A stretch of DNA of 64,000 nucleotides from Mytilus trossulus (taxonomy: Eukaryota), in assembly GCF_036588685.1 (NCBI RefSeq), contig NC_086377.1, positions 13,392,001 to 13,456,000 of the forward strand, in the 5' to 3' direction. The notes beneath the pieces were generated by a model. That model saw nothing but the letters and a program-made list of their open reading frames with translations. It did no database searches and was not told the origin of the DNA. Positions 1,151 to 45,067 of the stretch are shown in pieces. Made by a program: the position numbers and the translations under genes. Every line of letters begins with the position of its first letter. Position 1 is the stretch's first letter.

Positions 1151-1166
1151 TGCAACCTTTGTTTAA
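1151..1166 (+). CDS. Terminal coding exon of an upstream C-type lectin paralog (rest of gene lies before the window)
   Basis: ttttttag|T GCA ACC TTT GTT TAA encodes (D)ATFV*. It matches gene A's last exon (D)ATFI* at 20080-20095, with a similar 3' UTR and AATAAA at 1231. Confidence 0.8.
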
Positions 1167-3062: not shown

Positions 3063-3080
3063 ATGTCTATATTTTTTCAG
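3063..3080 (+). CDS. Gene A candidate exon 1 (MSIFFQ, start of signal peptide)
   Basis: ATG TCT ATA TTT TTT CAG|gtaagt is a consensus phase-0 donor. Splicing to 11481 gives MSIFFQISLVFLVGFTLIPSQ, a plausible signal peptide. It requires an 8.4-kb intron. Confidence 0.55.
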
Positions 3081-4944: not shown

Positions 4945-5260
4945 TTGAATGAATGAACGAATTAATCTTTATTGCAAAGCATAGACATGCTATGGCAAAA
5001 TAAACAACATATATAACATAATATAAAACATGAATAGACAACAGAAAACAATAGTATAATACAATGACATATAAATTATGTTATGAGACTATATAAGATC
5101 GAATATTCCATGCAGCTTTAACATAAATACATAATTTGATCGTGAGAGACTTACTAGAAACTAGGTTCACCATATAGCTTTTAATAATGAACAAAACTAT
5201 GCTGCTTGAAAATCTATTTAAGTTTATAAATCAGACGGAAAATATATTAAACGAGCCCGA
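4945..5260 (-). mobile_element. 3' end of a CR1/L2-like LINE
   Basis: The minus strand ends ...KLCIYVKAAWNIRSYIVS*, then a short UTR, AATAAA and a (CATT)n tail. Confidence 0.5.
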
Positions 5261-6061
5261 TTAATGTACAAGACAAAGAAAGAACAAATAAGGTATAAAG
5301 CAGTTAACGGCAACATCTAAATTACAGACTCCAACCATTAAACTGGTACTAACAGAACTACCTATACATATGAAAATAGAAATAACTACAGTAAAATAAT
5401 ATTGGATAATGTACCCGGACTCAATCAATGTGTGTATGAGTAGCAATTCTTATATGACTTGCCTCTTTCGCTTCGTTAACAATATCGTGATAACTTTCTC
5501 GATATATCCATTCTTAGCGCAAAATTCAGGGATATACAGTATACATCTTATACAATGTTATAACGGATTTTACAATTTACGTCCAACTTAAATTCACATT
5601 TATTTTAACATATATGCAAACGCTATGCCGATTTCGCTGTGTAAAATTTGCAATTGAAAAAGCTTTACTTTTATTATAATCCTTGTGCATAACTAAAAGA
5701 GGGAAAATAGGAACTTTTTTCTTTTAGAATGTTTCGAAACAAATCTATACGATATTATGCTGGGCCTACTTTTTGCTTCGGGAATGCCTTTGCGGTTGCC
5801 AAGTAAAAGAATACAACAATTGTTTTCTAGTTATTCCAGTATTTGGTTAAGTCGGGCGTTTGATTGTGTCAGATTTAAGGGACATCAACTTTTTCAAATT
5901 ACCATGAAATTTAACTTTTTATACGGATATGTTTGAAAAAAGTTAGAATACATGCCATGTGATTATCCGCATTCAAAATTGTAATGAATCAAACACAAAA
6001 CAAGCAATCAATCAAGCCTGACAATTTCAAACTGGATTCTAAGTCTAATTTGCCTTAACAT

Positions 6062-7495: not shown

Positions 7496-8139
7496 AATGA
7501 CGAAACGCACTTCTATTTAAGTTGGACGTAAATTGTAAAATCCGTTATAACATTGTATAAGATGTATACTGTATATCCCTGAATTTTGCGCTAAGAATGG
7601 ATATATCGAGAAAGTTATCACGATATTGTTAACGAAGCGAAAGAGGCAAGTCATATAAGAATTGCTACTCATACACACATTGATTGAGTCCGGGTACATT
7701 ATCCAATATTATTTTACTGTAGTTATTTCTATTTTCATATGTATAGGTAGTTCTGTTAGTACCAGTTTAATGGTTGGAGTCTGTAATTTAGATGTTGCCG
7801 TTAACTGCTTTATACCTTATTTGTTCTTTCTTTGTCTTGTACATTAATCGGGCTCGTTTAATATATTTTCCGTCTGATTTATAAACTTGTGTAGTTCGTG
7901 TTGTTTCTTAATTATTATTTATAACTGTTGATGTAAATGTCCTTTGGTTTTTGTGAGTCTTTGTTCACTCCTTGGTTTTGATTGTTATTGTCTATCATAA
8001 TCTGTGATTTCGAAATTATATTACACAACTGTACAATAGAATGAAGTGTATCAGTTTTCTAAATGTGCTTTTACATTATATAAAAGTTATAATAAATAAA
8101 GAAGGTGTGCAGTTTGTATTAACCGTAAAAAAACCATTT

Positions 8140-11480: not shown

Positions 11481-11706
11481 ATATCATTGGTGTTCCTTGT
11501 GGGTTTTACCTTAATACCTAGTCAACGGATATTTCCTAATTTAGATGGAATAAATGGTCAACAAGTTATTTCAAATATTAATGGGATCAGAACTGGTACG
11601 AATATAGTGGATGACCAAGAAATCTTCACTGACCGTAATGGAATATTCGTGAGTAATGAAGTTATTGACGGGAGAGTTTCAGGCTGTCCTAGTTCACAAT
11701 CATGGG
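11481..11706 (+). CDS. Gene A exon 2 (signal peptide core, Ile/Asn/Asp-rich region)
   Basis: ttatag| acceptor and G|gtaag donor (phase 0 to 1). ISLVFLVGFTLIPSQRIFPNLDGINGQQVISNINGI...GCPSSQSW is homologous to gene B exon 42642-42834. Confidence 0.85.
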
Positions 11707-11952: not shown

Positions 11953-12479
11953 TGTATATGTTCACGTACCAATTATTCAAACTGTAACTATGTTTCACGG
12001 AAACAACAGCTTTTTATGCTGATATAATAAAAGTAAAATAATTAAGGAGTATCAGTATCATTGCAAAAGAGTACATTTAGACAAACAAAGACTGTACCTG
12101 GATTTCCTTCATTTGTTGTTTTATTCACAGATTATCTTTAATCTTGCATTAAAACAGTTGGTGTTATCATTAATATATAACTTTTAAAACAAAAAACTAA
12201 TAAAACAAAAGAGCAATAATGTCAACGAATATGTGAGTAAATTCTTATGGCTGTTTTTTTATCAGGTTATCATTTATGAAACATGTATTTAAATATTCAC
12301 ATTGCTCTAGCGTAAAACTGTTACCAAGGTTTACACTAACACATACAAATAAACAAATCTGTTTGAGAAAACCAGTTGAGGACTATTACAAAATCAGTTA
12401 AATGTGTTTTCGGTTGCATCCTTGATACTCCAAAAATATTGTTCAAATAATAATACGTTTCATTCATTTTTTTTTTAAG

Positions 12480-12863
12480 ACGGTGCTTTCTTAGGTGGAT
12501 TCGCAATGGGAAGGTTACTCGCGCCAATGAGTATGGCGGACGGAACCATGATGACAACAGGACAAATAATGATTATGAATTTTATGAACATTTTAACAGG
12601 AAGTCCAATGGCCCCAGTGATTTGCCAACCACAATCAATTTCAACCACTTGTCCCCAGCAACCAACCACGACGCCTTGTCCGCTACAACCAGCAACGTCA
12701 ACTTGTCCCCAACATCCAACTACGACGCCTCGTCCCCAACAACTAAACTTGGCGCCTTGTCCCACTCAACAAACTACGACGCCTTGTCCACCACAACAAT
12801 TAACGACGCCTTGTCCCCAACAACCAAATACAACGCCTTGTCCTACACCACCTCCAGAAAGAA
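12480..12863 (+). CDS. Gene A exon 3 (Met-rich hydrophobic block plus CPQQPTTTP-type repeat stalk)
   Basis: ttttaag| acceptor and A|gttagt donor (phase 1/1). DGAFLGGFAMGRLLAPMSMADGTMMTTGQ... is homologous to gene B exon 43659-43859. Confidence 0.9.
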
Positions 12864-13123
12864 GTTAGTTTTCATAATATTTTTGCTTCAATGCATGATA
12901 GTTGCTTTTACATTTGGTATTCCTTTTACTTTACACTTCATAATCCGTCTACAAACGCAAGCCATACAATTGCAGATGCGTTTAAGAATACTGTTTTGTT
13001 TTGTTTGTGATTTTGTTTCAGATACATGTATATGGAATTCTCTGGTGTTATCAATGCTCGGTGCTCATACAAAATTGTGCCCGGTGACCCTTGATTTCTT
13101 TTCATAATTTTATTACATATAAT

Positions 13124-14470: not shown

Positions 14471-14556
14471 CTGCTATTTGTCCTCAAGGTTGGATCTTAT
14501 TTGAAGAGTTATGCTATAAGCTTTCTGCTGATGATAAAGTCTGGGATGATGCAAAG
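14471..14556 (+). CDS. Gene A exon 4 (C-type lectin domain N-terminus)
   Basis: tttttag| ... |gtata. TAICPQGWILFEELCYKLSADDKVWDDAK fits the long-form CTLD pattern CPxGW...CY...W..A. Confidence 0.9.
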
Positions 14557-17360: not shown

Positions 17361-17472
17361 ACTGAATGTGGAAATGAAAATGCTATCCTGGCTGAACCAG
17401 ATACTATAACAGAGCAAGGCTTTCTGAAACTTTTGAATCTGATACTTGTACCTGAAACAAACTGTCGACGTA
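17361..17472 (+). CDS. Gene A exon 5 (CTLD middle)
   Basis: tactag| ... A|gtaagt. TECGNENAILAEPDTITEQGFLKLLNLILVPETNCRR fits C.....LA.....EQ.FL, and phases match both neighbours. Confidence 0.85.
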
Positions 17473-18612: not shown

Positions 18613-18832
18613 ACTATTGGATTGGTGGAAGAGATTCCAATGATCCGCCATTATTAGACTTCAGATGGACCTCAAGAGGTGTAAATGTAAACGATGGAGT
18701 TACAGATTGGTTTATGGGGGAACCGAACGGTGGACCTTACCCTGAATACTGCACGGAAATGCGATCAGATTTCGATTACAAATGGAACGACCATCCATGT
18801 AGAGAAACAAACAGATATATCTGTCAAAAAGA
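18613..18832 (+). CDS. Gene A exon 6 (CTLD carbohydrate-binding part, EPN and WND motifs)
   Basis: NYWIGG...W...GEPNGGPYPEYC...WNDHPC...YICQK; tgtcag| acceptor and GA|gtatgt donor. Confidence 0.95.
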
Positions 18833-19396
18833 GTATGTTATCCTTACTGTTATCTCTCTAATAGGTCGTGCATATTGAAACCATTATCATACAGTTAACA
18901 TGCCGTATGGTGACCTATACTTGTTAATTTCTGTGTCATTTTGATCTCTTGTGGACAGTTGTCTCATTGGAAAACATACCACATCTTCTTTTTTATATAT
19001 GCTTGTATGATATGGGATTTACTCATTGGTGAAGGCCTTATGCTGACCTAGGCTTGTTGATGATCAATGATTTTCTGCTGTTTGTTTGTTCTTTGGCCCG
19101 GTTGTTTCTCTTTGACACCTTCTAAATTTCAATTATCATTACTTTTTTCATCTCAATAAGAACATAAACATGAACCAAAAAAATATAAATAGCATTTGCA
19201 TCTGTCTGTATTTTTGTGTGCTGTGTTGAGCATTTATCACAAAAGTTTAAGATAGAAGGCACGTGTGTGTGTGAAAACAAAATTTTTCATAAGAGTTTGC
19301 ACCACATTATAATTATTCTTTGATTTCCTGTGTAAAGCTTGTACCACTGCATCAAGTGTGATATGATATTTCTCTTCTCGATAAAGATTTCAAATT

Positions 19397-20079: not shown

Positions 20080-20095
20080 TGCGACATTTATTTAA
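20080..20095 (+). CDS. Gene A exon 7 (terminal, DATFI*); spliced CDS 1062 nt = 353 aa secreted C-type lectin
   Basis: ttttcag|T GCG ACA TTT ATT TAA completes the phase-2 codon. AATAAA lies at 20151 and a paralogous exon at 1151. Confidence 0.8.
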
Positions 20096-23519: not shown

Positions 23520-25480
23520 TTAACGTTCTAAATTGTTATGCATAAACATCACACTAAGGTATTTTAACGGCAACTATTTTACAATTTATGATATATATAT
23601 ATCAGATGGTGGTAAATATTGTCAATAGTGTCTTTTATATATGGGGAGCTGTGATACCTAGGGAAGTGTTATATCTCGGCTGATAGTCTCTTTTTGTGAA
23701 TTTCATAGCAGTATATTCTGGACATAGTTTCAATCTTTCCAAGTATTTCTGGGTTGTTCGGTATAATGTTCAGATTTGCGAAGCCTTGACAGTCTACTAT
23801 TAGTGTACATATTGCCTCACGGTTACTGAAGTGAGTTGCCCATATTGATTCAGATATAACTCTCATTATAAATTTCTTAATTGAAGTGTATAATGCTATC
23901 CTGATGTTCATATACAATGGACAAGTTGTTAACACATGACATATGTCTTCGTTTTCAGTTCTACAGTTTGGACAAATCGGGTCTACTTCGGCCTGATTTA
24001 ATCTGTGTCTATGAGCTTGTAATAGATAGGTTCCCGTTAATATGCGGCTTTTTGTAATTGCTTTTCTAATATCTGAAACTGATGAAGAAACTGTAGCCCA
24101 AACAGGATGTGTGACACCTATTGTTAAGTTCGAAATTGCTAAATGTTGTAGAGTTGATTTTTCTTCACATTCTAGACGTAGTGTGTTTGTCCAATGACCG
24201 TTTATTGCTGATTTTGTCCGTTTTTTTCATTCTTTTTTTGAATACTTCTTTTTGCATAATTCCAGAAAGAAAGGTAGATTGTACATCTCTAAAATTTCTG
24301 CTGTTTTGGTGAAGAAGCTTGTTGATCTTCCGGAAATATATTGACGCATAGCTAGTGATCTAATAGTTTCATTGTCGCTATTGAGAACACCAAATAAGAG
24401 GCTAAGTTGTCTTTTGTGAATTTCAGCAATAAGCGGTAGAGCTCCCAGAAGTAGGTATACTGATGCACATGCTGTCCTTTCGGAAGAGACTGAAGTTTTC
24501 TCAAGGTATCGAGGTGGAAGCTTGACAGAAGCGACATTTCTTTAGAATTCACATGTAGAGTTTAAGCCCGTACAGTAGCCTTTGTAGGACATACGCTTGA
24601 TAGATCCTATATGAGGATTTAGGATTTAAACCGTTTGAGCCATGTAGACCAGTCTTTATGAGCGAGTACAATGTTCTTCTGGATAAACTTATGCGATCAT
24701 CTACATTTATTCGGGTTTCATCTTTTGTTGATCTTGTAAGCCCTAGGTGGGTTGTACGATCCGTACAATTTAGATCATTGTTCCCCATTTTAAAAGCATC
24801 GCTATCTTCAGGATCTTTACGTTTATTTCCAGTCTTTATTATAACATTACTCTTTTGAGGATGGATGTTAAATCGATGGTCTTTTGAGTAGTTATTGACA
24901 ATGTTCAGCATTTCTTGTATTTCTTCTCTATTGAGGGATAAAAGTACGATGTCATCTGCACATGTAGGACATCCAACATAATTGTTGCCTATATGAGAAC
25001 CTAGATTTTGTTTTTGCAAATCAAGAAGCAGTTCGTTTATGTAGGCCTTATATAGGTGAGTAGATAGGACACCTCCTTGACGCACGCCCTGATGTATTCC
25101 AGAGCTTGTACTTGTTTCTCCTTTCAATTTTACTGTTGATGTTACGCCGCTATATAGCTCCTCGATAATGTTCCACAAATTCAGATTTAGTCCGTAGTGA
25201 TATAGCCTGTCCATCAGTATTACGTGACTTACAACATCGAATGCCTTTTGACTGTCGAGTGTTGTGACGAAAATGGTTTATTTTCCTGTGATCTCTGAGC
25301 ATGCCTCCGAAAGTATAAGTGCTGCCATGTTTGGAGACAGTCTTTGTGTAAAACCAAACTGTAAAGGAGATTGTCCTGATTTCATTAAGTTAGCTTTATC
25401 CAAAATGATATATTCAAATACTTTTCCGATAATTGATTCAAAGGTAACATAACTGATTTTGCATTTACACCTTTTGTTTG
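23520..25480 (-). pseudogene. Degenerate non-LTR retrotransposon ORF2 (RTEX-like RT)
   Basis: QGVRQGGVLS and CPTCADDIVLL RT motifs, a C-terminal CPNC...H.LTTCPLY zinc motif, and multiple frameshifts. Confidence 0.85.
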
Positions 25481-26150: not shown

Positions 26151-26171
26151 CTTACAATAACACCACACCAT

Positions 26172-28310
26172 GCTTTACGCCGCATTAGCACAAAAAGGCA
26201 ATATCGCGGCGAGAGCTAATTCGAATATTTTTACAATTTAAAGCATATTTTTAAAATAAGACAAAAAGTCCTTCAATATACTAAAATTCTTGACTAAAGC
26301 AAATTGAGTATAAACAAATAAAAATCAGCAGTAAAATAACGTGATAAAAATTAAAATCGATTTAAATATAATAACATTTTTATATTTTATAATAAATTGC
26401 AATTTCTTTTAAAAAAGCAACAATATTTGTAAATGGAACATTATTAAATAAATCATACATATTATTGACATTGAAATGCTTCTTACGAATATCAGCAAAG
26501 TCAATACAATTAATTAAAACATGTTTAATAGTATACTTGCAGTTGCAAGGAACACATTGTGGTTCATCTTCATTTTTTAAAAGATACTCGTGTGTTATTC
26601 TAGTATGACCAATACGACATCTAGTAATAACACACTGATCTTTTCTGCACATAATGTTATTAAAAGGTTTGCCTAAATTAGGTTTAATTTCATGCAATTT
26701 ATTATCATCTTTTTTACTCCATTTATTTTTCAATATATTAAAAACATATTCTCTAATATTAGATTTAAAATCAGTATATGGTATATCACAGTTAGATAGA
26801 GGATCACCCAGGGCATTCTTTGCCCCAAGGTCTACAGCTGTGTTTCCAAGGATTCCAACATGACTCGGAACCCATAGAAATATTATTTCTTTCAGAAGAA
26901 TTTTTAAATTCCTCATTACATATAAAATTTTCAGGATTGTTGGGTTTTTAATTTTAGTATTTCGTATAGCTTGTAAGCATGAAAGTGAATCCGAACATAT
27001 AATAAATTTGGATTTATCTGAAGAAGCAATAAATTTCAAAGCCAAAATTATTGCTTCTGCTTCAGCAGTAAAGATGGATGCATCAGATGGCAAACGGAGG
27101 GTTGCAGCTCTGTCCCTGAAGACAGCAGCAGATGCAACTCACCATCTTTTGATCCATCAGTATATACAGTTGAAAAATCTAGATAATCGGCTTTAATTTC
27201 AGCATAGTGTTGCTGAATTAAAAGAGGATTTGTTTTATTTTTATTGTGTTCACGGAGATCAAATATCATTTTTGGTTTAGGAAGTTCCCATGGAGGACAT
27301 TTGCAAGTTTGAACTTGAGCAACAGCTTTTAAATCAAAAGAAGCTAAATGTGGTTTTAAACGTAAACCTAACGGAGGAATTTTATTTTCATGTTTTGCAA
27401 AAATATCTTCATAAATCGGATTAAAAACACAGCTGTAGGCAGGATTATCTGAATGGGCTTTTAGTTTGACAGCATATTGAAGTCCAAGCTTCAAACGTCT
27501 GTCAGTGAGTGAGTGCTCATCAGCCTCTACATACAGACTCTCAACTGGTGAGGTTTTAAATGCGCCAAGACAGAGACGCAAACCTTGGTGATGCACAGCA
27601 TCGAAAATTTGTATGTAGGACTTCCTTGCAGAGCCATACACTATAGAACCATAATCTTGTTTAGATCTAACAAGAGATCTATATAAATTGAGTAAAATGT
27701 TGCGATCAGCACCCCAGTCAGTGCTGCCGACAACTTTTAAAATATCTAAAGCTTTTAAACATCTCGCTTTTAACATTTTGATATGGGGTAGAAAGGTTAA
27801 CATTTTATCGAAAAGTAAACCAAGAAATTTGGTTTCATCAACCAGTTTAATTGGGTTGCCGTACAAGGTTAGTTCTGGATCAAGATGCAATTTTCTTTTG
27901 TTACAAAAATGCATCCCGACCGTTTTTGAAGTGGAAAATTTAAAACCATTTTCCGAGGCCCATTTTTCAATTCTTCCAAGACATAATTGTAATTGTCTTT
28001 CAATGTAATTCATATTTTTGCCTCTGTAACATATTAAAAAATCATCAACGTACAATGAACCTTCAATATTACTTTTTAAAACCTCAACAAGGCTGTTGAT
28101 TTTAAGACTAAATAATGTAACAGATAAAATACTGCCCTTGAGGGACACCCATCTCTTGATCATACAGATCAGATAGAATTAACTCTAACATTAAATTGTC
28201 TGTTAGAGAGAAAATTAGAAATAAAATTAGTCATATTGCCTTTCAACCCCATATCAAATAGATCTTTTAAAATACCATATTTCCATGCAGTATCATAGGC
28301 CTTCTCAAGA
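26172..28310 (-). mobile_element. 5'-truncated copy of the I-group LINE (RT C-half, RNase H, 3' UTR), frameshifted
   Basis: ORFs 27048-28163 (YVDD) and 26380-27093 (RNase H) are near identical to the 34509-36430 region. Confidence 0.95.
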
Positions 28311-28991
28311 TCCCTGCCAAGGTTTTGTAATCAACAGGTAATCAGTGTCCCTACTAAAGTTAACGTTTGAAGCAAGTTATCCAAGGTTTTGTTTTGTTTT
28401 TGTATATCTTGTTTAGCCTTTATGCATTGCTTGGCTCTGGCATCTTTTAAACTCTGATCATGACACAGTATGGAATTTTTTTTTTGCATGAATACTTTTC
28501 TTAATATCTTAAAAAATAAATCACATTTTGGTGTAAAATATTAACCTCACGTATGTGTGCAATTATATTCTAATATATATAGTATTCAAGAAGTTGTAAT
28601 AGATATAAAATTAAATTTAAAAAAACATGCATCATAATCTATTACACCGTTAGTTTTCCTTTTTGGATAGTTTTACACTAGTCTAGTAATTTTGGGGCCC
28701 TTTATAGCTTTTTGTTCGGTGTGAGCCAAGGCTTCGTGTTGAAGGCCGTACATTGACCTATAATGCTTTACTTTTATAAGTTGTTATTTGGATGGAGAAT
28801 TGTCTCATTGGCACTCCCACCACATCTTCCTAAATCTATAGAAATTTAACGCACCCTGAAACAATTTTACTCCTAAATTTGTGTTTCTGATTTGGTGATT
28901 TTAACTGATGGAAATTATCCTGAAGGCACTGAAGTTTGATCTCTTCCATTGTCTTAAATCTATAAGGGCAGGATGGCAAAACATATTCTTA

Positions 28992-31407
28992 AGTATGAAG
29001 ATCAGTTGATAGACCTAGCTGAATTGTTTTATTAGCCTTATTATGAAGATCAGTTGATAGACCTAGCTGAATTGTTTAATCAGCCTTAGTATGAAGATCA
29101 GTTGATAGACCTAGCTGAATTGTTTTATCAGCCTTAGAATGAAGATCAGTTGATAGACATAGCTGAATTGTTTTATCAGCCTTAGTATGCAGATCAGTTG
29201 ATAAACCTAGCTGAAATGTTTAATCAGCCTTAGTATGCAGATCAGTTGATATACCTAGCTGAATTATTTTATCTGCCTTAGTATGAAGATCAGTTGATAA
29301 ACCTAGCTGAATTGTTCAATCATCCTTAGTATGCAGATCAGTTGATATACCTAGCTGAATTATTTTATCAGCCTTAGTATGAAGATCAGTTGATACACCT
29401 AGCTGAATTGTTTTATCTGCCTTAGTATGAAGATCAGTTGATACACCTAGCTGAATTGTTTTATCAGCCTTAGTATGCAGATCAGTTGATAGACCTAGCT
29501 GAATTGTTTTATCAGCCTTAGTATGCAGATCAGTTGATAAACCTAGCTGAATTGTTTAATCAGCCTTAGTATGCAGATCAGTTGATATACCTAGCTGAAT
29601 TATTTTATCAGCCTCAGTTATCTGCCTTAGTATGAAGATCAGTTGATAGACATAGCTTTATTGTTTTATCAGCATTAGTATGCAGATCAGTTGATAGACC
29701 TAGCTGAATTTTTTTATCAGCCTTAGTATGCTTAGTATGAAGATCAGTTGATAGACCTAGCTGAATTGTTTAATCAGCCTTAGTATGAAGATCAGTTGAT
29801 ACACCTAGCTGAATTGTTTTATCAACCTTAGTATGAAGATCAGTTGATAGACAGAGCTGAATTGTTTTATCAGCCTTAGTATGAAGATCAGTTGATAGAC
29901 CTAGCTCAATTGTTTTATCTGCCTAAGTATGAAGATCAGTTGATAGACATAGCTGAATTTTTTTGTCAGCCTTAGTATGCAGATCAGTTGATAGACCTAG
30001 CTGAATTGTTTTATCAGCCTTAGTATGAAGATCAGTTGATAGACCTAGCTGAATTGTTTAATCAGCCTTAGTATGAAGATCAGTTGATACACCTAGCTGA
30101 ACTGTTTTATCAGTTTTAGTATGAATATCAGTTGATAGACAGAGCTGAATTGTTTTATCAGCCTTAGTATGAAGATCACTTGATAGACCTAGCTGAATTG
30201 TTTTATCAGCCTTAGTATGAAGATCAGTTGATACACCTAGCTGAATTGTTTTATCAGCCTTAGTATGCAGATCAGTTGATAGACCTAGTTGAATTTTTTT
30301 ATCAGCCTTAGTATGAAGATCAGTTGATAGACCTAGCTGAATTGCTTTATTAGCCTTAATATGGAGATCAGTTGATAGACCTAGCTGAATTGTTTTATCA
30401 GCCTTAGTATGAAGATCAGTTGATACACCTAGCTGAATTGTTTTATCAGCCTTAGTATGCAGATCAGTTGATAGACCTAGCTGAATTGTTTTATCAGCCT
30501 TAGTATGCAGATCAGTTGATAGACATAGCTGAATTGTTTTATCAGCCTTAGTATGCAGATCAGTTGATAGACATAGCTGAATTGTTTTATCAGCCTTAGT
30601 ATGAAGATCAGTTGATAGACCTAGGTGATTTTTTTTATCTGCCTTAGTATGAAGATCAGTTGATACACCTAGCTGAATTGTTTTATCAGCCTTAGTATGA
30701 AGATCAGTTGATAGACCTAGCTGAATTTTTTTATCAGCCTTAGTATGACGATCAGTTGATAGACCTAGCTGAATTGCTTTATTAGCCTTAATATGGAGAT
30801 CAGTTGATAGACCTAGCTGAATTGTTTTATCAGCCTTAGTATGAAGATCAGTTGATACACCTAGCTGAATTGTTTTATCAGCCTTAGTATGCAGATCAGT
30901 TGATAGACCTAGCTGAATTGTTTTATTAGCCTTAGTATGCAGATCAGTTGATAGACCTAGCTGAATTGTTTTATCAGCCTTAGTATGCAGATCAGTTGAT
31001 AGACATAGCTGAATTGTTTTATCAGCCTTAGTATGAATATCAGTTGATAGACCTAGGTGAATTTTTTTATCTGCCTTAGTATGAAGATCAGTTGATACAC
31101 CTAGCTGAATTGTTTTATCAGCCTTAGTATGAAGATCAGTTGATAGACAGAGCTGAATTGTTTAATCAGCCTTAATATGCAGATCAGTTGATAGACCTAG
31201 CTGAATTGTTTTATCAGCCTTAGTATGAAGATCAGTTGATACACCTAGCTGAATTGTTTAACAGCCTTAGTATGAAGATCATTTGATAGACATAGCTGAA
31301 TTGTTTTATCAGCCTTAGTATGAAGATCAGTTGATAGACCTAGCTGAATTGTTTTATCAGCCTTAGTATGAAGATCAGTTGATAGACATAGCTGAATTGT
31401 TTTATCT
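28992..31407. repeat. Tandem satellite, 48-bp unit, ~50 copies
   Basis: Unit TAGTATGAAGATCAGTTGATAGACCTAGCTGAATTGTTTTATCAGCCT; the register recurs every 240 bp (5 units). Confidence 0.97.
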
Positions 31408-34400
31408 GTCTCAGATGGTGTGATGTTCTGCTCAGGAAATAGCACTCTATTATTTCCACAGGTTGCAGCGAAAGGAGGCCAATGTTTGCTAATTCACCAG
31501 ATATTTACCCAAACTGTGCTGATCAGTTGCGAAAACTTGCTACTAGCAGCAGCATACAATTTTTCTCTACTTCCAATATTAAAATATCAGTACGTTAGAC
31601 AGCATTTCCTTTTTTTAGTTATTAATACATTTTATTATTGTGTTTTATTTTTAAAAAACAAGTTTTATTCATAATAAAAACTACATCTCAGTAATATAGA
31701 AATTACATTAAAATTTTGCAGTTGTCTACATAATCGATCAATAAAAAAGAAGTCCCGGTAATTTTATTGGTTCATGTATGAAGTTCCACTTGAATAGGCT
31801 TATTACGGAAGCCGATAAGGGCCATTAAAAAAATATTTTATGTCGTTATTACGACATAGCCTGTCGTAATTTCGACATAACATGTCGTTATTACGACATT
31901 GCTATGTCGTAATTTCGACATAACATGTCGTTATAACGACATCGCTATGTCTTAATATCGACATATCATGTCGTAATAACGACATCACTATGTCGTTATA
32001 ACGACATAGCTATGTCGTAATAACGACATCGCTATATTTAAAAGAATATGTATTATGATTGGCAAGAGACTAAATGACAAAGAAATTTACAATTATACGT
32101 CATCATAATGTCCCCGATAATTATAAAAGCCCCCGCATGGTCAGCTATAAAAGAGGGAAGAAAGCTACCAGAGGGAGAGTCCCCGAAATGCTGTGTGACA
32201 CAGTGTTATTATTCCATTATTAGCTCCCTTGGTAAAACTCCAAATTTCATATTGAATGTATTCTATTGTTAAAAAATTTACAGAAGCTTAATAAGTATAT
32301 ATTTGTTAATTGCATGGCTTTTGCTATTTGAATTCATAGGTGAAAGATATTTATTTATATTGTAAAGTTTAATATTTGCATCGTCGCAAAATCTTTGGTT
32401 ACCTTCTTTGGATACCTTCAGTGAGAAACTTATATATGTTATAGATACCAATTTAGATTAACATGGCCCATAGTGCTAGGGCTGTACAGTCAGTCAAAAT
32501 CGTATATCAACAAGTTACCGGTATGCAGTCACACATGTTGGAAGAATGAAATGTGGAATTATTAGAGGACTGAAATTGTTCAACCAAGTCAAGCAACGCT
32601 TTCCATCTCCCTTTAAATAAGCGCAAACTACATGGCTTCTTGGTATAAGGGTGTATTGAAGTATTGATAGCTCTATTTCTAAGTTCAAACGTTGGGCACG
32701 CGCGATGTTCCTACAACCCCTAGGATTTATAACAGAATCTTCGAAATTTCATCCGCAAAACAAAATAAAAATGTTGGAAAACACGAACCAATATTAAAAC
32801 AAATTCAATATATGTTTTAAAATATGTTTTTACAGCTCTTCATCATCTCCTAAGTAATATCTAGTATATTTGAGGATTAAAAAAAGAAAGCTATGTGAAA
32901 AAAACGGATGTCCCCATCCAACGTTACATTTATGAAAAACTGTTTTAACTCTTATGTATAGTGATCTTATTTCTTATTCTCTGATCTTCTTGTTTCTTGA
33001 CAGGAACAACGACATGTGTAGGTTCTTTGTGGCGTTAAAGCCGTTATTTTACCAAATTTCGTTTGAATCGACTGCATACTATAGTAGAAAATGAATAAAA
33101 ATAGTAAGACAATCATAATATCTAACAAAAGTACAAATATTTGCCTCATGTGAGTTCAAATATTGCTGATTCAATAAAAATCTTCTCTACACAGTCGTTT
33201 TTTAAATCAATGGTAGCCATTTTGTCCAAGTTGATATTTCATTTTTCAAAGCAGTTAAGGCGTTTTTTTATAATTGATCAAAACAAAAGTTAGATACACG
33301 CAGAGTAAAAAATGCCAAGAATCTTTCCTTATTAACTACATATTTGGGTCTTAAAGGAATAAAATGCTTCCATACATTACAAAACGGTAGCCAACTTTTC
33401 CAAATGTCTGAACACGTCTAAAATCCTAAAGACGCTAATTTCCGACGTTAATGTGCTAAAGTTTCAATTAAATGTTTATGATGATTAAAACATGTTATGA
33501 AATTTGGAGAAAGATGTTAATGATTGCTGCCGAAAAAAAAAATTGTGCATGTTGCTAAAGACTCCGCCCGGGGAAATAGGTTCGACACAGGTTAAATTTT
33601 GCAATTTTTATTAATTGTTTAGCTTTTAACGATTTATTTAAAAGAATTTGGAAATGGGGGGAAAATCCCATTTTATAAAATAAATTGAAATTTATGTTAC
33701 GGAAGTACTCCGAAATAGATCATTTAAAGTCGTCACTTCAGTTAGGTGCAATCATCAATATCAAAACACTTAATACCAGTTCACGGAATGTTTTACTTCG
33801 CGATTTGTCCTGCTATTTCGTGATGAAAGTAATTCCTGTACTAGCGAAGCTGGAACTTTTCGTCAATATAAACGTGTGCATGAAATGGAGGTAATTGACA
33901 GACGAATCCCAAACAGCAACGAAAACCGTTTCATCGAATTAAAAAAAAAAACCGGGATTATATTTTTATTTGCCGTTTTGGCGGACGACCCAGGAGTAGA
34001 TTACTATATTTTAAAATGTATATATCTGAAGATGACTTGGGAAATAATTCTCAAGCCAAGGTTCAAGTAATTGAAGGAGTGTATTTCGACAACTTATATG
34101 TCAGGGATTGATTGATTGATTGTTGGTTGCTTTACGCCGCATTAGCACAAAAAGGCTATATCGCGGCGAGAGCTTATTCGAATATTTTTACAATTTAAAG
34201 CATATTTTTAAAATAAGACAAAAGGTCCTTCAATACACTAAAATTCTTGACTAAAGCAAATTGATTATATACAAATAAATGATTGATTGATTGTTGGTTG
34301 CTTTACGCCGCATTAGCACAAAAAGTCTATATCGCGGCGAGAGCTAATTCGAATATTTTTACAATTTAAAGCATATTTTTAAAATAAGACAAAAAGTCCT

Positions 34401-34508
34401 TCAATATACTAAAATTCTTGACTAAAGCAAATTGAGTATATACAAAATAAAAATCAACAGTAAAATAACGTGATAAAAATTAAAATCGATTTAAATATAA
34501 TAACATTT

Positions 34509-37500
34509 TTATATTCTATAATAAATTCCAATTTCTTTTAAAAAAGTAACAATACTTGTAAATGGAACATTATTAAATAAATCATACATATTATTGACAT
34601 TGAAATGCTTCTTACGAATATCAGCAAAGTCAATACAATAAATTAAAACATGTTTAATAGTATACTTGCAGTTGCAAGGAACACATTGTGGTTCATCTTC
34701 ATTTTTTAAAAGATATTCGTGTGTTATTCTAGTATGACCAATACGACATCTAGTAATAACACACTGATCTTTTCTGCACATAATATTATTAAAAGGTTTG
34801 CCTAAATTAGGTTTATTTCATGCAATTTATTATCATCTTTTTTACTCCATTTATTTTTCAATATATTAAAAACATATTCTCTAATATTAGATTTAAAATC
34901 AGTATATGGTATATTACAGTTAGATAGAGGGTCACCCAGGGCATTCTTTGCCTCAAGGTCTACAGCTGTGTTTCCAAGGATTCCAACATGACTCGGAACC
35001 CATAGAAATATTATTTCTTTCAGAAGAATTTTTAAATTCCTCATTACATATAAAATTTTCAGGATTGTTGGGTTTTTAATTTTAGTATTTCGTATAGCTT
35101 GTAAGCATGAAAGTGAATCCGAACATATAATAAATTTGGATTTATCTGAAGAAGCAATAAATTTCAAAGCCAAAATTATTGCTTCTGCTTCAGCAGTAAA
35201 GATGGATGCATCAGATGGCAAACGGAGGGTTGCAGCTCTGTCCCTGAAGACAGCAGCAGATGCAACTCTGTCACCATCTTTTGATCCATCAGTATAGACA
35301 GTTGAAAAATCTAGATAATCGTCTTTAATTTCAGCATAGTGTTGCTGAATTAAAAGAGGATTTGTTTTATTTTTATTGTGTTCACGGAGATCAAATATCA
35401 TTTTTGGTTTGGGAAGTTCCCATGGAGGACATTTGCAAGTTTGAACTTGAGCAACAGATTTTAAATCAAAAGAAGCTAAATGTGGTTTTAAACGTAAACC
35501 TAACGGAGGAATTTTATTTTCATGTTTTGCAAAAATATCTTCATAAATCGGATTAAAACACAGCTGTAGGCAGGATTATCTGAATGCGCTTTTAGTTTGA
35601 CAGCATATTGAAGTCCAAGCTTTAAACGTCTGTCAGTGAGTGAGTGCTCATCAGCCTCTACATACAGACTCTCAACTGGTGAGGTTTTAAATGCGCCAAG
35701 ACAGAGACGCAAACCTTGGTGATGCACAGCATCGAGAATCTGTATGAAGGACTTCCTTGCAGAGCCATAATCTAGTTTAGATCTAACAAGAGATCTATAT
35801 AAATTGAGTAAAATGTTGCGATCAGCACCCCAGTCAGTGCTGCCGACAACTTTTAAAATATCTAAAGCTTTTAAACTTCTCGCTTTTAACATTTTGATAT
35901 GGGGTAGAAAGGTTAACTTTTTATCGAAAAGTAAACCAAGAAATTTGGTTTCATCAACCATTTTAATTGGGTTGCCGTACAAAGTTAGTTCTGGATCAAG
36001 ATGCAATTTTCTTTTGTTACAAAAATGCATCCCGACCGTTTTTGAAGTGGAAAATTTAAAACCATTTTCCGAGGCCCATTTTTCAATTCTTCCAAGACAT
36101 AATTGTAATTGTCTTTCAATGTTATTCATATTTTTGCCTCTGTAACATATTAAAAAATCATCAACGTACAATGAACCTTCAATATTACTTTTTAAAACTT
36201 CAACAAGGCTGTTGATTTTAAGACTAAATAATGTAACAGATAAAATACTGCCCTGAGGGACACCCATCTCTTGCTCATAAAGATCAGACATGGTCGAATT
36301 AACTCTAACATTAAATTGTCTGTTAGAGAGAAAATTAGAAATAAAATTAGGCATATTGCCTTTCAACCCCATATCAAATAGATCTTTTAAAATACCATAT
36401 TTCCATGCAGTATCATAGGCCTTCTCAAGGTCGAAAAAGACCGACACCACATGCTCATTTTTCGCAAAACCATTACGGACAAATGATTCGAATCGAACAA
36501 GATGATCAAGAGTACTGCGACCCTGTCGGAATCCACACTGGATATTGGCTAATAGCCCATTGGATTCCAGGAACCAAACAAGGCGATCATTGACCATCCG
36601 TTCGAGTGTTTTACAGACACAACTGGTAAGAGCAATTGGTCGATAATTAATAGGATCCGTATGATCTTTACTTGGTTTTGGAATAGGCACGACGGTTGCA
36701 AGCTTCCAGATTGATGGTAAATCACCAGATTCCCAGATGTTATTCATGAGCTGCAAGAGAGCTTCTAGCGAGGAATCTGGCAAGTGTTTTAAGAGTTGGT
36801 AGTGAATATTATCAGGCCCACAAGCTGTATCATGGGCTTTTGACAGAGATGTTTTAAGTTCTTCAAGAGAAAATTGTTTATTATAATTTTCACCATTTTT
36901 TGATTTAAAGTTTAATTTATTTTTTTCTTTTTGTTTTTTAACTTTTTTTTCCGTCGTTGGTTGTGAACCGTCTTTCAGATTTTTTACGGTCACCTATGGC
37001 TTGATCACATGCGTCATCAAACCAAGAGTTACTGGGATGTTTTGGATTTGCCGAGGTCTTAGGAATAGTTCTGTCAGCAATTGACGTTAGAACTGTATTA
37101 AAAGTTAAAATTGGATCTTGCACAGTCCCAAACATCTTTGACTGAAGTTCCGCTCGACAGAGATTCTCAAACAAGGACCAGTCCGCCTTGTCAAGTTTCC
37201 AACGTGGTACTCTCTGTTGGGCAGAATTAAAAAGATGTTCAAGTACTATTGGAAAATGATCACTTCCACATAGATCATCATGAACACGTCATGAATAATC
37301 CAGAAGCAGAGAGGGATCGCATATAGTGATATCAATAGAAGAATAAGACCCGTTTCCAGGATGAAGATACGTATTAGATCCATCATTAAAAATGCATAAT
37401 CCTTCTTGAGAGACAAAGTCCTCAATGATCTTACCTTTGGCATTATGAGTCTTGCTACCCCGTAATGGATTGTGGGCATTGAAGTCGCCCATAAGTATAA

Positions 37501-37878
37501 ATGGTGAGGGTAATTGATCAGTGAGGTTTTTGAGTTTTGCTTTATCGATAATTGAATTAGGTGGAATATATATCGAACATAATGTAATTGTTTTGTCTAA
37601 TGATAAACGAATTGCAACTGCTTGCAGATCCGTTGTGAGTTGGACTGTGCTATGAATGACGTTTTCCTTCACAAAAACGGATGATCCGCCTGCAGCACGT
37701 TCATCTACCTTAGAAAATGTACTATACATGTTGTATCCTTTTAAAGATACGTTGTCACTTTCTTTTAGATGAGTTTCTTGAAGACAAAATGCAATAGGTA
37801 AAAAGACTGAACTAGAAGTGTTAACTCGAGAAGATTTATTTTAAGACCTCGGCAATTCCATTGGATTATATTTGTCAT
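34509..37878 (-). pseudogene. LINE ORF2: AP endonuclease, reverse transcriptase, RNase H, C-terminal Zn motif (frameshifted)
   Basis: MTNIIQWNCRG, LQETH, GDFNAH (APE); YRPIAL, DLEKAYD, PQGS, YVDD (RT); YTDGS, AE..AI, SDS, WVPSH.GI.GN (RNase H). Broken into several ORFs. Confidence 0.92.
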
Positions 37879-37889
37879 TATTTAATAAA

Positions 37890-39391
37890 AGAAGGGCGAA
37901 TGCTGTCGAGTTTGCCAGCATTCTTATTTCGCTCACCCTGAGATCGTGATCTTTCGGGTGGCGGAACACTTTCAGTTTCCATTTCAGTTTCGATGATAAG
38001 TGTTGAAAATCTGTTGTGCGAGGAGAGTAGTCGATCTCCAGGACTACGCGCAGCTGGTGTTACTCCGCCTCGACCCCTACCCCGCGACCTCGAATCAGAA
38101 GACTTCTGAGAGGATGTATTTCCTGGCTTCTTTTGGACATCCTTCTTTTCTTGAGAACGAAGAGGAGATGGGGCTCTGGTAGACTGTGTACTGGACGAAG
38201 AAGATACCTTCTTGGATGCAGATGAAGGCAGACTTTTGGAGGTGGAAGAATCATCTATGTCACTGGGAAGATCCCAGACAGATTCACCGCTCCAATTGTG
38301 TATTTCTACTGTTTCTTTTTATTTTTTTTCTCATTTTTTTTTGGTGATGATAGTGAGCTCTGTAGGGAAGATTGAGTTGACTGAGTACTGGTTTTGGAAG
38401 ATATTGGTTTTCTTGGAATTAATATTCTATCGGTAGGTTCTGTTTCAACAGGCAGCATTTTAAAATTGTCCGCATCAATTGGCCAAGTCATGCGAGTTTG
38501 TGTATTCTCGTGACTGAATGAGCGGACAACTTTGCTGGCGTACGATGGTCTGTTTGAAACAAGGAGATCATTCGAAACAGAAGCTATCTGTTTAGCTTCT
38601 GGGTAACTAATGTTTCTTTCTGTTTTAATTTTAATTATATTTTTTTCTTTAAGGTAAACAGGGCAGTCCCTAGACGATGAAAAATGGTATTCACCACAGT
38701 TTACACATTTAGAAGATTCAGAGTGACAGTTTGTTCCCTCGTGTCCTTCGTCAGAACACTAGAAGCATCTCTGATTACCACGACATTGTTTGCTTCCATG
38801 ACCAAACTTTTGACAAGTAAAGCATTAAATTGGGTTTGGGATAAACATGTCAACTCTGATTCCGAAGCAACCTAAAGTAATAGATGGAGGAGGAGTTGGA
38901 GTTCTAAAGGTCAAAAGATAAGTATTTAATTTGATTATATTTCCATTCTTTTTAATTTGAAATCTAATAACATTAGTTACACCTTGGCTTGAAAGTTCCT
39001 CACCGATTTCTTCCACGGTAAGGTCACCAAGGTATTGACTTCTGTCTCGAATGATCCCCTTACAGCTGTTCAAACTGTTATGAGGAGAGGCAGAAACAGG
39101 AAAGTTTGATATTGTAGACATTGTAAGTAAATTTGTTGATTGACTTTTGTTGGAACATTCAACCAACAAATTGCCAGATCTCATTTTTGAAACTTTTTTA
39201 ACAGTACCAGCAACGCTTTGAATTTGTTTGTGAATTACAAAGGGCGATATTTTTGAAATTGTTTTTTCTTCTGTTCCTTTTATTACAATAAATCTGGGCC
39301 AACTGTCATCTTCCCGACAGGGCTCTGAATCATCACATTTTCTTTTCTTATGCATTAAAGCTGATTTAGAGGGTTTGTTTTGTTGTGCCAT
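37890..39391 (-). pseudogene. LINE ORF1 (gag-like, three CCHC knuckles) with in-frame stops
   Basis: MAQQNKPSK...PNPI*CFTCQKFGHGSKQC...CF*CSDEGHEGTNC...CVNCGEYHFSSSRDC. The 3' boundary is approximate. Confidence 0.85.
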
Positions 39392-39993
39392 ATGAAAGGA
39401 GAAAGATTCACCATTCTTGCCATCCACCCACCTCGGAGTGCCTACAAGGGCGATGCTGTGTTTCCGTGGCGAACCGGGATCGAGTGCTAATGCTGAAAAC
39501 GAGCTCCATATATAATGTAGCTGGTCCTCAAAATCAGCACCCAAGATCCACTGCGGAAAGCACCAGATGTTCCAAGAATAGTATACTCAAGCAGAGCTTA
39601 TCCATCAAGCGAAAAAGAAAGCGTACCACTTGATTGACCCATGAGCCATCGCCTTCTTCAGTTATCCAAAATATAAATAGCTTAATTTAAAATACATGTG
39701 TATATTATGAAAATTGTTACAAGACAGCTTATTGTTGAGGATTAACTGAAGGGCTCGACATGACCAGCCGATTGATCGAACCGGGTCCATCCGACCTCCC
39801 GTTTAGATGATTTCGAAGCCAAAGCAGCTTATTGAACTATAGTCTCGTCCGTCCGGGTATTTTCTGACCGTAAGGAGTCTGGCTATAGCCCTCATCCACA
39901 AGGATCTCGTCAACCACCGACACGGGTAGCAACCCACGGCAAACGGGTTGGAGAGCCTATTTTATTTAAAACATCGGGCATCTCACGATGTTC

Positions 39994-40139: not shown

Positions 40140-41597
40140 TATATGTCAGGGAAAATACAATTCTATTCAAATTTAACCAAGGGAAAAAAATGTTCGATTT
40201 ACTTGCAGAGTGTCAGATATATTTGTATTGGGGATGAATTAAGATATAGAAATTTTACAATGACAGATGATATGCAACTTGAAAGTTAAACATCCAAAAT
40301 ATGAAAACCGTATACATGTACTTCCGTCCCATCTTTCCTTCGTACATTACTTGCGACAGTACTGCATTTTAAGTTGAAACAACTTAAAGGGTAAACATTA
40401 TTTTATCGATTTCCACAACTCGAGGTAATTTTGTGATAAAATGACATCACAAAACGAACAGAACCAGAATCAACCAACAATATAAAAAACCGAATAAAAC
40501 TTGCAAAAATTAATCAAAGTCACATTTTAATTGTAACGTGTTATAGGAATATCGTGCCCAATGTTTGAAAGTAGCATTAAAGCATTATTGAAATTTTATT
40601 TCACCCTTATTACCCTTGTAGTATGCGCTTATTTTGTGGGAGATGGGATACTTAGCAGGCTCGCATATGCACTTTGCATTATCAAGCTAATCTGTCTGTA
40701 CAGCCATTTGACAGACGTCTAGTTATTAACCTCAACGGTATTTTATAAAATATATAAGTTTCTCACTGAAGGTATTCAAAGAAGGTATCCAAAGATTTTG
40801 CGACGATGCAAATTTTAAACTTTACAATATAAATAAATATCTTTAACCAATGAATTCAAATAGCAAAAGCTATGCAATTAACAAATATATACTAATTAAG
40901 CTTCATGTAAATTATTTAACAATAACATGCATTAAATATGAAATTTGGAGTTTTACCAAGGGAGCTAATAATTGAATAATAACACTGTCCGCAACACAGC
41001 ATTTCGGAGACTCTCCCTCTGGTATCTTTCCTCCCTCTTTTATAGCTGACTATGCGGGGGCTTTTCTAATTATTGGGGGCATTATGATGACGTATAGTTG
41101 TTAATATCTGTGTCATTTAGTCTCTTGGCAATCATTTTACATATTCTTTTATATTAAGCGATGTCGTTATTACGACATAGCGATGTCGTTATAACGACAT
41201 AGTGATGTCGTTATTACGACATGATATGTCGAAATTACGACATAGCGATGTCGTTATAACGACATGTTATGTCGAAATTACGACATAGCGATGTCGTAAT
41301 AACGACATGTTATGTCGAAATTACGACATGCTATGTCGTAATAACGACATAAATTATTTTTTTGAATGGCCCTTATCGGCTTCCGTAGCTTATTGACCAA
41401 TAAAGAATGTAAGACTGATATGAAATTTACATCTACGTAATTATTGTCAAAAGAACACACACGAAAAATTTTGTCAAAATTATACATACATTTTTGTCTG
41501 AAAAACTACCGGAAGAATAAAATCTAAATAGTAAAATCATTTTTTTCCGAAAAACCGTCTTTGTTCAATTTCTCAGTCTTGTTTAAATGAATGTTTA

Positions 41598-42641: not shown

Positions 42642-42834
42642 ATGTTACTAGTGGTTTTGATTGGTTTTACTATGAAAAGTAGCCAGCAAGTAGTGACCAA
42701 TTTAAATAGAATAGATGAACAACGAGTTATTACTAATATAGATGATATAGAAGATCAAGGAGCAATTGGCACCATCGATGAAATTTTTTTAATCAACGAA
42801 GAAAGAGTTTCCAGTTCACCAACAAACACTTGTG
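42642..42834 (+). CDS. Gene B first identified coding exon (signal peptide, acidic Ile/Asn/Asp region)
   Basis: ctttag|ATG ... G|gtgaga. MLLVVLIGFTMKSSQQVVTNLNRIDEQRVITNIDDI... is homologous to gene A exon 2. An upstream exon was not identified. Confidence 0.85.
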
Positions 42835-43400: not shown

Positions 43401-43658
43401 TATCACAATCGGAATTTTGTTCCAATTGAAGAGCATTTTGATGCAGCAAACCTGAATATGAACATGATGAATATTTGATGCATTTTTTCATCTTCAAAGT
43501 ATATGTATATTTTTAACTGTGAACTCTCCTCTGTTATGTGCTTTAGGGTGTCTAATATCAAAGCATCAATTTGTTATTACGACATTGACATTTGGGTTTA
43601 CCCTGTTATCCTTGTCATAACATTGACTTTGTGATAATACTTTATTGATTTTTTTAAG

Positions 43659-43859
43659 ACGGTACTTTTCTTGGTGGATTTTTATTTGGAAGATTATTGG
43701 CACCAATGGCTATGGCGGACGGATCAACGATGGCAACGGGACAAGTTATGATGATGACACTGATGAGCATGTTGACAGGAGTGCCACAGACTGCAGTACC
43801 AATGGTATGCCCACCCCAATTAACCACCATGCCTTGTCCATCAACACCGCCTCAAAGAA
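43659..43859 (+). CDS. Gene B Met-rich/stalk exon
   Basis: ttttaag| ... A|gtaagt (phase 1/1). DGTFLGGFLFGRLLAPMAMADGSTMATGQVMMMTLMSMLTG...CPPQLTTMPCPSTPPQR. Confidence 0.9.
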
Positions 43860-44309: not shown

Positions 44310-44590
44310 CCGTCAACCGTGTTATACTATGCGAAGGAAATGTGCCGGCCTTTATCAGTTGCGATTCACAAATAAATATAGTAGAAGCTGTATACGGTCG
44401 AGTAGATCGCAGTATTTGTCCAGATGATAGAATATTAACAACAAGCTGTATGTCAACTACGTCAGATGCTTTAGTTAAAACAGATTGCAATGGACAAACA
44501 ATTTGTCAATTAATGGCTAATAATGCTAAATTTGGTGACCCCTGTCAAGGTACATACAAATATCTAGATGTCACTTATACATGCATTTAG
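44310..44590 (+). CDS. Gene B terminal exon: SUEL / rhamnose-binding (Gal_lectin) domain; spliced CDS 675 nt = 224 aa
   Basis: LCEG...SC...I..A.YGR...IC...SC...C.G...C...N..FGDPC.GTYKYL.V.Y.C with 8 Cys; AATAAA at 44644. Confidence 0.95.
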
Positions 44591-44716
44591 ACACGAACAA
44601 ACTGTTTGCTTTATCTGTAAGGTTTAAACAGTCAAATTGGATTAATAAAAAATATCTTAAAATGTTTTCCTTCAATACGAAAGGTTAAACTTGACATGTG
44701 GGTGCTCTTCCTATAT

Positions 44717-45067
44717 TAAGGTATGTACCGAGGTGCCGCTTCTTATATAAAGGTATGTACCGAGGTGCCGCTTCTTATATAAAGGTATGTACCGAGGTGC
44801 CGCTTCTTATATAAAGGTATGTACCGAGGTGCCTCTTCTTATATAAAGGTGTGTACCGAGGTGCCGCTTCTTATATAAAGGTATGTACCGATGTGCCTCT
44901 TCTTATATAAAGGTATGTACCGAGGTGCCGCTTCTTATATAAAGGTATGTACCGAGGTGCCTCTTCTTATATAAAGGTATGTACAGAGGTGCCGCTTCTT
45001 ATATAAAGGTATGTACTGAGGTGCCGCTTCTTATATATAGGTATTTACCGAGGTGCCGCTTATTATA
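44717..45067. repeat. Minisatellite, 32-bp unit, ~11 copies
   Basis: AAAGGTATGTACCGAGGTGCCGCTTCTTATAT in tandem. Confidence 0.95.

Follow-up and report, generated by a model that had tools for sequence, protein, structure and literature searches.

Two neighboring genes in a 64-kb stretch of AT-rich eukaryotic DNA from the mussel Mytilus trossulus, referred to here as the window, raise the question of why the same short Met- and Gly-rich block is found in two predicted lectins whose C-terminal heads are unrelated, and of what the block does there. A first-pass annotation of this DNA had singled out the block as a candidate new assembly domain. Both of the peptides that it quoted are indeed found, at 12480-12601 and 43659-43780, and they are identical at 28 of 41 residues (68%). 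Each copy contains 8 Met, or 19.5%, in agreement with the figure of about one residue in five that had been given, together with 7 Gly. The block represents a real, lineage-restricted, and apparently undescribed module that is carried on ordinary lectin heads.

The lectin gene cluster

The gene models are predictions built from homology and splice signals, and they place the two genes, A and B, in a cluster that runs in the order paralogue, A, B, all in one orientation (Table 1; database relatives are referred to by P numbers). The paralogue is seen through its last coding exon, which encodes a short C-terminal peptide of the P0008/P0010 type and indicates that the tandem array of C-type lectin genes extends upstream of the window. 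Genes A and B are laid out alike: the predicted signal peptide is followed by an acidic segment with one Cys at its end, then by the Met/Gly block, and lastly by a Cys/Pro/Thr linker. The heads that follow are unrelated, being a C-type lectin domain in A (Pfam E 1e-7) and a SUEL domain in B (E 2.5e-20). In each gene, the exon that holds the block and linker has phase 1-1, and the phase-1 intron behind it is where the head begins. Since one front end is found on two unrelated heads, its job cannot depend on one head fold.

Table 1. Coding features of the lectin cluster, in window coordinates
Feature	Position	Strand	Basis and remarks
Third C-type lectin paralogue, last coding exon	1151..1166	+	aligned to gene A last exon, including intron end and 3' UTR
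Gene A exon 1, 6 codons, predicted signal peptide start	3063..3080	+	ATG, CAG/GTAAGT donor (slash marks the splice point), phase 0; placed by homology
Gene A exon 2, signal peptide remainder, Ile/Asn/Asp-rich acidic segment, one Cys	11481..11706	+	AG/GT sites, phase 0-1
Gene A exon 3, block and linker	12480..12863	+	phase 1-1
Gene A Met/Gly block, 41 aa, opens exon 3	12480..12601	+	directly behind AG acceptor
Gene A Cys/Pro/Thr/Gln linker, 87 aa, 8 Cys	12602..12863	+	composition; exon end phase 1
Gene A exon 4, C-type lectin domain start	14471..14556	+	96% to P0003; phases 1-0
Gene A exon 5, C-type lectin domain	17361..17472	+	95% to P0003; phases 0-1
Gene A exon 6, C-type lectin domain with EPN and WND	18613..18832	+	Pfam Lectin_C E 1e-7, above cut-off
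Gene A last coding exon, 5 codons and stop	20080..20095	+	CAG acceptor, phase 2; placed by homology
Gene B exon 2, predicted signal peptide (in-frame Met first), acidic segment, one Cys	42642..42834	+	89% to P0002 residues 1-64; ends phase 1
Gene B Met/Gly block, 41 aa	43659..43780	+	directly behind AG acceptor
Gene B short Cys/Pro/Thr linker, 26 aa, 2 Cys	43781..43859	+	composition, splice frame
Gene B last exon, entire SUEL (rhamnose/galactose-binding type) domain	44310..44590	+	Pfam SUEL_Lectin E 2.5e-20

The seven coding exons of gene A have canonical splice sites and together form a closed frame of 353 residues. The first of them is similar to the N-termini of P0008, P0010, and P0004, the second is homologous to exon 2 of gene B (27 of 64 residues identical), and the signal peptide is called on hydropathy, with a KD 19-mer value of 2.03. 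Within the block, a Gly-rich hydrophobic stretch is followed by the motif GRLLAP, a predicted hairpin at MADG, and a predicted amphipathic, Met-rich helix. The segment had initially been drawn from 12480 to 12620; its start stands, and its end falls about 20 bases inside the linker. The linker itself is expanded by a 27-bp tandem repeat (TRF 12648-12843, period 27, 7.3 copies).

The head of gene A is that of a single-domain secreted C-type lectin (PF00059), with the Pfam match, the long-form Cys pattern, and both of the Ca2+ site-2 motifs, EPN and WND. Exon 6 alone scores 33.1 bits against a Pfam cut-off of 22.6 for Lectin_C, and the relative P0008 gives E 2.6e-15 for the same domain. Among the C-type paralogues, the sugar-site motif varies, being mostly EPN, with QPN in P0010 and KAT in P0008, and the block is nearly constant. 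Skipping the donor at 18832 leads to a stop at 18878, such that 18833-18878 (+) would add a short hydrophobic tail to gene A; models P0006 and P0007 terminate by reading through this donor, which makes the tail a possible alternative C-terminus. Intron 1 of gene A also contains a 374-base perfect inverted repeat (5220-5593 versus 7515-7888).

For gene B, three exons were found (42642-42834, 43659-43859, and 44310-44590), encoding 224 residues. The head belongs with the SUEL/rhamnose-binding lectins (PF02140): it scores 73.1 bits against a Pfam cut-off of 31.4, harbors the YGR and DPC-x-GT-x-KYL motifs and eight Cys residues, and matches the rhamnose-binding lectins 5h4s and 2zx0 in the PDB, with 8/8 Cys aligned to those of CSL3 (2zx0). 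The top solved relatives of this type have two to three tandem domains per chain, whereas gene B has one domain on a stalk that is borrowed from, or shared with, a C-type lectin. A six-codon first exon, which is present in relatives, was not found in four scans of 20100-42640, an interval that contains several retrotransposon pieces. Translation of gene B may start at the Met that opens exon 2, or the promoter exon may have been lost. Around 120 bases past the stop codon there is a 32-bp minisatellite with 11 copies (44707-45067).

Much of the remaining window is taken up by repeats and mobile elements. A non-LTR retrotransposon lies at 34500-39600 (-), its endonuclease, reverse transcriptase, and RNase H pieces being spread over several frames. 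A partial copy that is 97% identical to it is found at 26171-28312, and another, separate fragment of reverse transcriptase at 24552-25277 (-). The retrotransposon is flanked by an inverted pair of about 640 bases (31804-32443 versus 40744-41387), 93% identical and with internal 22/43-bp repeats, which possibly represents foldback or MITE-type ends. At 28992-31406, a 48-bp tandem array of around 50 copies harbors a 367-codon stop-free frame on the minus strand with a 16-residue repeat, for which Pfam gave no match above cut-off. Finally, a MADF/Myb-like frame at 58310-59515 (+) faces a DDE_Tnp_4 frame at 60357-61352 (-), which we take to be the pair typical of PIF/Harbinger transposons.

Conservation of the block

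Against the 28 identities between the two blocks, shuffling the B block 20,000 times yields 4.7 matches on average and at most 17. Among the rows of a blastn self-comparison of the window at E<1e-6, the sole coding match between A and B is 12470-12601 versus 43649-43780, at 77%. Identity between the two proteins falls to 42% in exon 2 on one side of the block and to 42% in the linker (11 of 26) on the other. The same pattern is found when the 28 pairs between head types are averaged, with 67% for the block, 43% for exon 2, and 48% for the linker. The block had been described as the best-conserved part of the two proteins, and this holds among exon 2, block, and linker; the ranking covers these three N-terminal segments only, because the C-terminal halves of A and B are unrelated. 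Within the C-type proteins (n=7), the block also has a higher mean identity than the head (84% versus 67%), whereas within the SUEL proteins (n=4) it is not the more conserved of the two (86% versus 89% for the head), and there the description does not apply.

An alignment of 14 related sequences, from which P0011 and the truncated P0014 are left out, is free of indels and has 18 invariant columns of 42, although these columns overstate constraint, as all of the homologues are close Mytilus paralogues or orthologues. Selection on the block was assessed from the A/B pair. The value of dN/dS is 0.33 (bootstrap 95% 0.10-0.86; 1.3% of resamples >=1; Fisher p 0.008), an estimate that is drawn from 40-41 codons of one gene pair, and the other two frames of the block give 0.78 and 2.3. 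The differences are distributed as 10, 5, and 15 over codon positions 1, 2, and 3. These values indicate that the block is under purifying selection, as is exon 2.

At synonymous sites, the block has diverged less than exon 2 (pS 0.44 versus 0.77, p 0.018), so that old gene conversion, or a constraint near the splice site, could account for part of the similarity. Recent gene conversion between A and B was considered and rejected, since their identity equals the between-group mean and the A/B similarity of five flanking intron stretches is not above that of shuffles.

Distribution and origin of the stalk

The closest named proteins to the gene B block are 81-96% identical to it and are from Mytilus. 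Three word-index searches gave relatives in 5 of 23, 5 of 9, and 10 of 8,000 scored candidates. All ten of the relative clusters are from Mytilus, comprising five with C-type heads, four with SUEL heads, and one fused model, and the cluster members add M. edulis, for a total of five Mytilus species. An exhaustive profile search of 1.84 billion representatives resulted in seven matches at E<=0.001, five of which are Mytilus proteins at E<=1.6e-22. Two non-Mytilus matches, P0017 and P0018 (E ~5e-4), were rejected as long repeat proteins that sum many weak stretches; P0017 is SpaA/SdrD-like, with an hhalign score of 1.7%. A metagenome scan confirmed one of 169 pattern matches, L001, which lies on an intronless, bacterial-looking contig and has the MADG-type word only; it was rejected as chance. 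The conservation in other homologues that the first-pass annotation had called for is present, with the block kept in 12 database homologues. The Mytilus-only distribution is a property of these searches, in which other mytilid genera may be poorly represented.

The block does not correspond to a cataloged domain in the libraries searched. Pfam gave no match to it above cut-off for nine exons or proteins of the window and ten alignment members, with DUF5957 (E 0.1, 4 of 10 members) and a holin (E 0.15, 1 of 10) appearing below threshold; NCBIfam matched none of the ten alignment members; and a PDB sequence search with the block returned one chain only, at E 1.3. These results agree with the earlier remark that no domain could be recognized here. 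When the model of the module, which is weak and small as a query, was compared with known structures, Foldseek gave no match at E<=0.001 (88 at E<=10), and a fold search gave one of 48,161 chains at Z>=2 (Z 2.1, rmsd 4.0, 39 aligned). Two of two queries of the ESM Atlas yielded no usable match, which informs on neither novelty nor absence. A likeness to the hydrophobic cores of prion-protein or glycine-zipper type, and an amidated-peptide reading of the Gly-Arg motif, were both dropped because no library match was found.

A topical search of openly available literature found no description of the block, and the literature searched made no mention of 12 family accessions; subscription papers and supplements, such as those of Mytilus byssus, shell, and mucus proteomes, may list or describe them. 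Six family accessions are absent from one supplement of PMC10140915, and the stalk is not described in the available portions of PMC3039611, PMC5549309, PMC3896809, PMC7971044, and PMC12842671. The designation of a new domain can be kept in the sense of a selected, exon-bounded module, albeit a small one that is confined to one genus so far.

In a tree of the stalk (14 rows), the carriers of C-type and SUEL heads are split at 100/98, and a tree of the block (12 rows, with P0009 and P0015 left out) has the same split at 98/97. Both M. coruscus and M. galloprovincialis are present on each side of the split, which points to one head swap before those lineages parted. We infer a single origin for the family with two head types, predating the divergence of M. 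coruscus and the edulis group. In the probable course of events, the 5' half of a C-type lectin gene from the tandem array was duplicated and then spliced onto a SUEL exon; as the tree is unrooted, the donor is assigned solely on the larger size of the C-type array. The A-then-B order recurs in P0003 (VDH99403.1) from M. galloprovincialis, a model in which the orthologues of A and B are fused, with an internal signal peptide. In this model, the A-type block is read in an alternative frame, which is also open in the window (12454-13107), and the shift reflects either a frameshifted or broken allele or an error of the model.

Predicted shape and cysteine content

In the AlphaFold2 prediction from a ten-row alignment of the module, a short helix and a beta-hairpin around MADG are followed by a helix of 14 residues; the pLDDT is about 71 at residues 41-60 of 76, and its mean is 54 (pTM 0.34; 36 of 76 residues <50). 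A full-length model of P0008 (eight-row alignment) has a mean pLDDT of 32, and even its lectin domain is unfolded. A three-copy complex of the block scored 0.01 in a run made without an alignment, in which the fold of the chain is itself uncertain, and this score speaks neither for nor against assembly. In the predicted helix of the block, the polar residues are confined to a single arc of 200-360 degrees, and the remainder is a wide, Met-rich apolar face that a 41-residue segment could hardly bury on its own. As predicted, this helix spans two heptads only, which is short for a coiled coil, and it is the Pro-rich linker that adjoins the head.

Exactly one Cys is found within the 14 residues upstream of the block in 13 of 13 sequences, with P0005 left out on account of its different modeled N-terminus. 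In gene A, the usual position is occupied by Trp and the Cys has moved six residues upstream rather than being lost. Gene B, P0002, and the SUEL half of P0003 have three stalk Cys in addition to the eight of the SUEL domain, and as those eight align with CSL3, at least one Cys of this odd total should be free or inter-chain. Among C-type members, the parity of Cys is mixed.

Role of the block

The reading that we favor, tentatively and stopping short of calling it probable, is that the block is the conserved core of an N-terminal stalk and acts as a hydrophobic self-association tail, making single-head lectins multivalent. Among the roles suggested by the first-pass annotation, oligomerization likewise seems the most plausible. 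There is one head per protein, and the argument is that such lectins need clustering, that the module is not tied to one type of head, and that it has more apolar surface than its 41 residues could bury. After secretion, the Gly-rich stretches and the Met-rich helix faces of several chains would pack together, and the lone pre-block Cys and the linker Cys would lock the bundle via inter-chain disulfides. The linker would act like a hinge and keep the heads apart, and weak single-site sugar binding would become avid cross-linking of microbes, food particles, or mucus glycans. A more far-reaching version, which is decidedly speculative, has the block as a portable, Met-rich, hairpin-helix self-assembly domain that is soluble in granules and polymerizes on release or microbe contact into nets or gels. 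Grafted by exon shuffling onto interchangeable heads, it could allow C-type and SUEL chains to co-assemble into mixed mannose- and galactose/rhamnose-binding lattices.

It is unlikely, but worth keeping in view, that the block instead serves to anchor the lectin, whether on lipid surfaces, on microbial membranes, or in a hydrophobic extracellular matrix such as mucus, byssus, periostracum, or the shell organic layer, a role that would be compatible with self-association. The broad apolar face of the predicted helix and the Gly-rich hydrophobic stretch would suit such a role. However, the block is near neutral, with 2 acidic and 1-3 basic residues, unlike membrane-binding peptides, which are cationic, and anchoring leaves the conserved unpaired Cys unexplained. 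According to the portions available of the papers concerned, expression of some galactose-binding-domain genes is restricted to the foot in Mytilisepta (PMC5549309), the foot of Perna has high expression of tandem C-type lectin-like genes (PMC7971044), and membrane insertion has been proposed for one big-defensin N-terminal domain (PMC7203481), all of which would be in keeping with an anchor.

That the acidic segment and block together form a pro-region or sorting signal for secretory granules, to be removed or loosened on release, is improbable. Neither A nor B has a dibasic or RxxR site in its N-terminal region, the single Arg before the block is missing in P0001, P0004, P0009, P0010, P0013, and P0015, and the nearly invariant Gly-Arg is followed by Leu, a residue that disfavors monobasic cleavage after Arg. 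These features have to be set against the 5-11 Asp/Glu residues of the acidic segment and the succession of signal, acidic, hydrophobic, and effector parts, which resembles that of big-defensin precursors as far as the available portion of PMC7203481 describes them.

We consider it similarly improbable that the block has no separate function and is a duplication leftover or spacer, in which similarity reflects shared ancestry and perhaps gene conversion. Such an explanation would fit with relatives being found in Mytilus only, with the lower synonymous divergence of the block relative to exon 2, and with the shifted block frame of the P0003 model, but it sits poorly with an upper bound of dN/dS below 1, with a block that outranks the C-type head in conservation within the C-type group, and with the lack of any sign of recent conversion or of a single indel in 14 copies.

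A role in Met chemistry, in the form of oxidant scavenging, a redox switch, or the binding of Cu(I)/Ag(I) via MxM and MxxM, is very improbable. Motifs of this type bind soft metals in copper-transport proteins, and all 14 sequences have 6-9 Met per 41 residues of block, with four Met columns invariant. Yet 4 of the 10 Met-majority columns are invariant, compared with 5 of the 13 other hydrophobic columns, and the only replacements of Met are Ile, Leu, Val, or Thr, which weakens the suggestion of a redox-sensitive segment made in the first reading. Moreover, A and B agree more closely in the Gly-rich half (17 of 21) than in the Met-richest helix half (10 of 19), and there is no His in the block.

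Lastly, a transmembrane anchor of a receptor-type lectin is barely conceivable, despite the hydrophobic character of the block, its two G-x-x-x-G spacings, and the weak sub-cut-off Pfam matches to DUF5957 and holin. On simple scales, the block does not look like a membrane span: the best KD 19-mers that touch it reach 1.37 (A) and 1.28 (B), against 2.03 for the signal peptide of A, and the insertion-scale sums come to +6.5 and +4.6 kcal/mol. The block is also broken up by invariant Arg, Pro, and Asp, and a single span behind a cleaved signal would place the disulfide-rich head in the cytosol.

Comparison with known systems

As a putative self-association tail, the stalk can be compared with those of other lectins that carry one head per chain. 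The collectins (MBL, SP-A, and SP-D) have an N-terminal Cys, an assembly segment, a spacer, and a C-terminal lectin head, and the same order, with a putative assembly segment, is found in the A/B family and in the C1q-like type II and fibrinogen-type lectins of bivalves. The Cys-bearing N-terminal segment of collectins has a counterpart in the one Cys that precedes the block. In contrast to collectins, the A/B family is without collagen, the longest Gly-X-Y run being two triplets (P0002 and P0008), with no collagen Pfam match in the window exons. It also differs from both collectins and coiled-coil lectins in having no predicted long helix, and its candidate assembly element is a 41-residue Met/Gly module that lies far from the head. 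The coiled-coil tails of bivalve C1q-like and fibrinogen-type lectins are thought to oligomerize the heads, according to the available portions of PMC6835236 and PMC8878817.

In mussels, tandem, lineage-restricted subfamilies of C-type lectins are usual, as seen in the accessible part of a survey (PMC10140915). This survey sorts proteins by their Pfam domains and, in that part, describes no stalk such as that of gene A, which is around 190 residues long and contains the Met/Gly block.

Big defensins, as described in the available portion of PMC7203481, are also secreted bivalve proteins, with a signal, a pro-like segment, a small hydrophobic N-terminal domain, a linker, and a Cys-rich effector behind a phase-1 intron, and their hydrophobic domain forms nanonets. 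However, the A/B stalk has no dibasic processing site, and its heads are C-type or SUEL rather than beta-defensin. The block, which is short and has a weak model, gave no Pfam or PDB sequence match to them, and the topology of their domain is beta1-alpha1-alpha2-beta2, as opposed to the hairpin-helix predicted for the block. MRNP34, a pearl-oyster shell protein known here through a title cited in PMC3896809, is likewise secreted, molluscan, and Met-rich, a likeness by description only. No shell protein of this type is among the homologue matches, and in the mussel proteins the richness in Met is limited to a short block, conserved in position, that is attached to a lectin.

Significance

The locus presents a tidy case of exon shuffling, in which heads are swapped at a phase-1 intron inside a tandem array. 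If self-assembly is false, then the block is a minor, lineage-specific stalk on ordinary lectins. If it is true, the block would constitute a 41-residue tag that works in seawater, and could serve in the engineering of multivalent binders. Bivalve lectins are mostly without collagen tails, and the multivalency of those with a single head is largely assumed rather than demonstrated. With a short, selected module found on two unrelated heads, there is a candidate for a third answer to this problem, beside collagen and coiled coils, and one that lends itself to clean testing.
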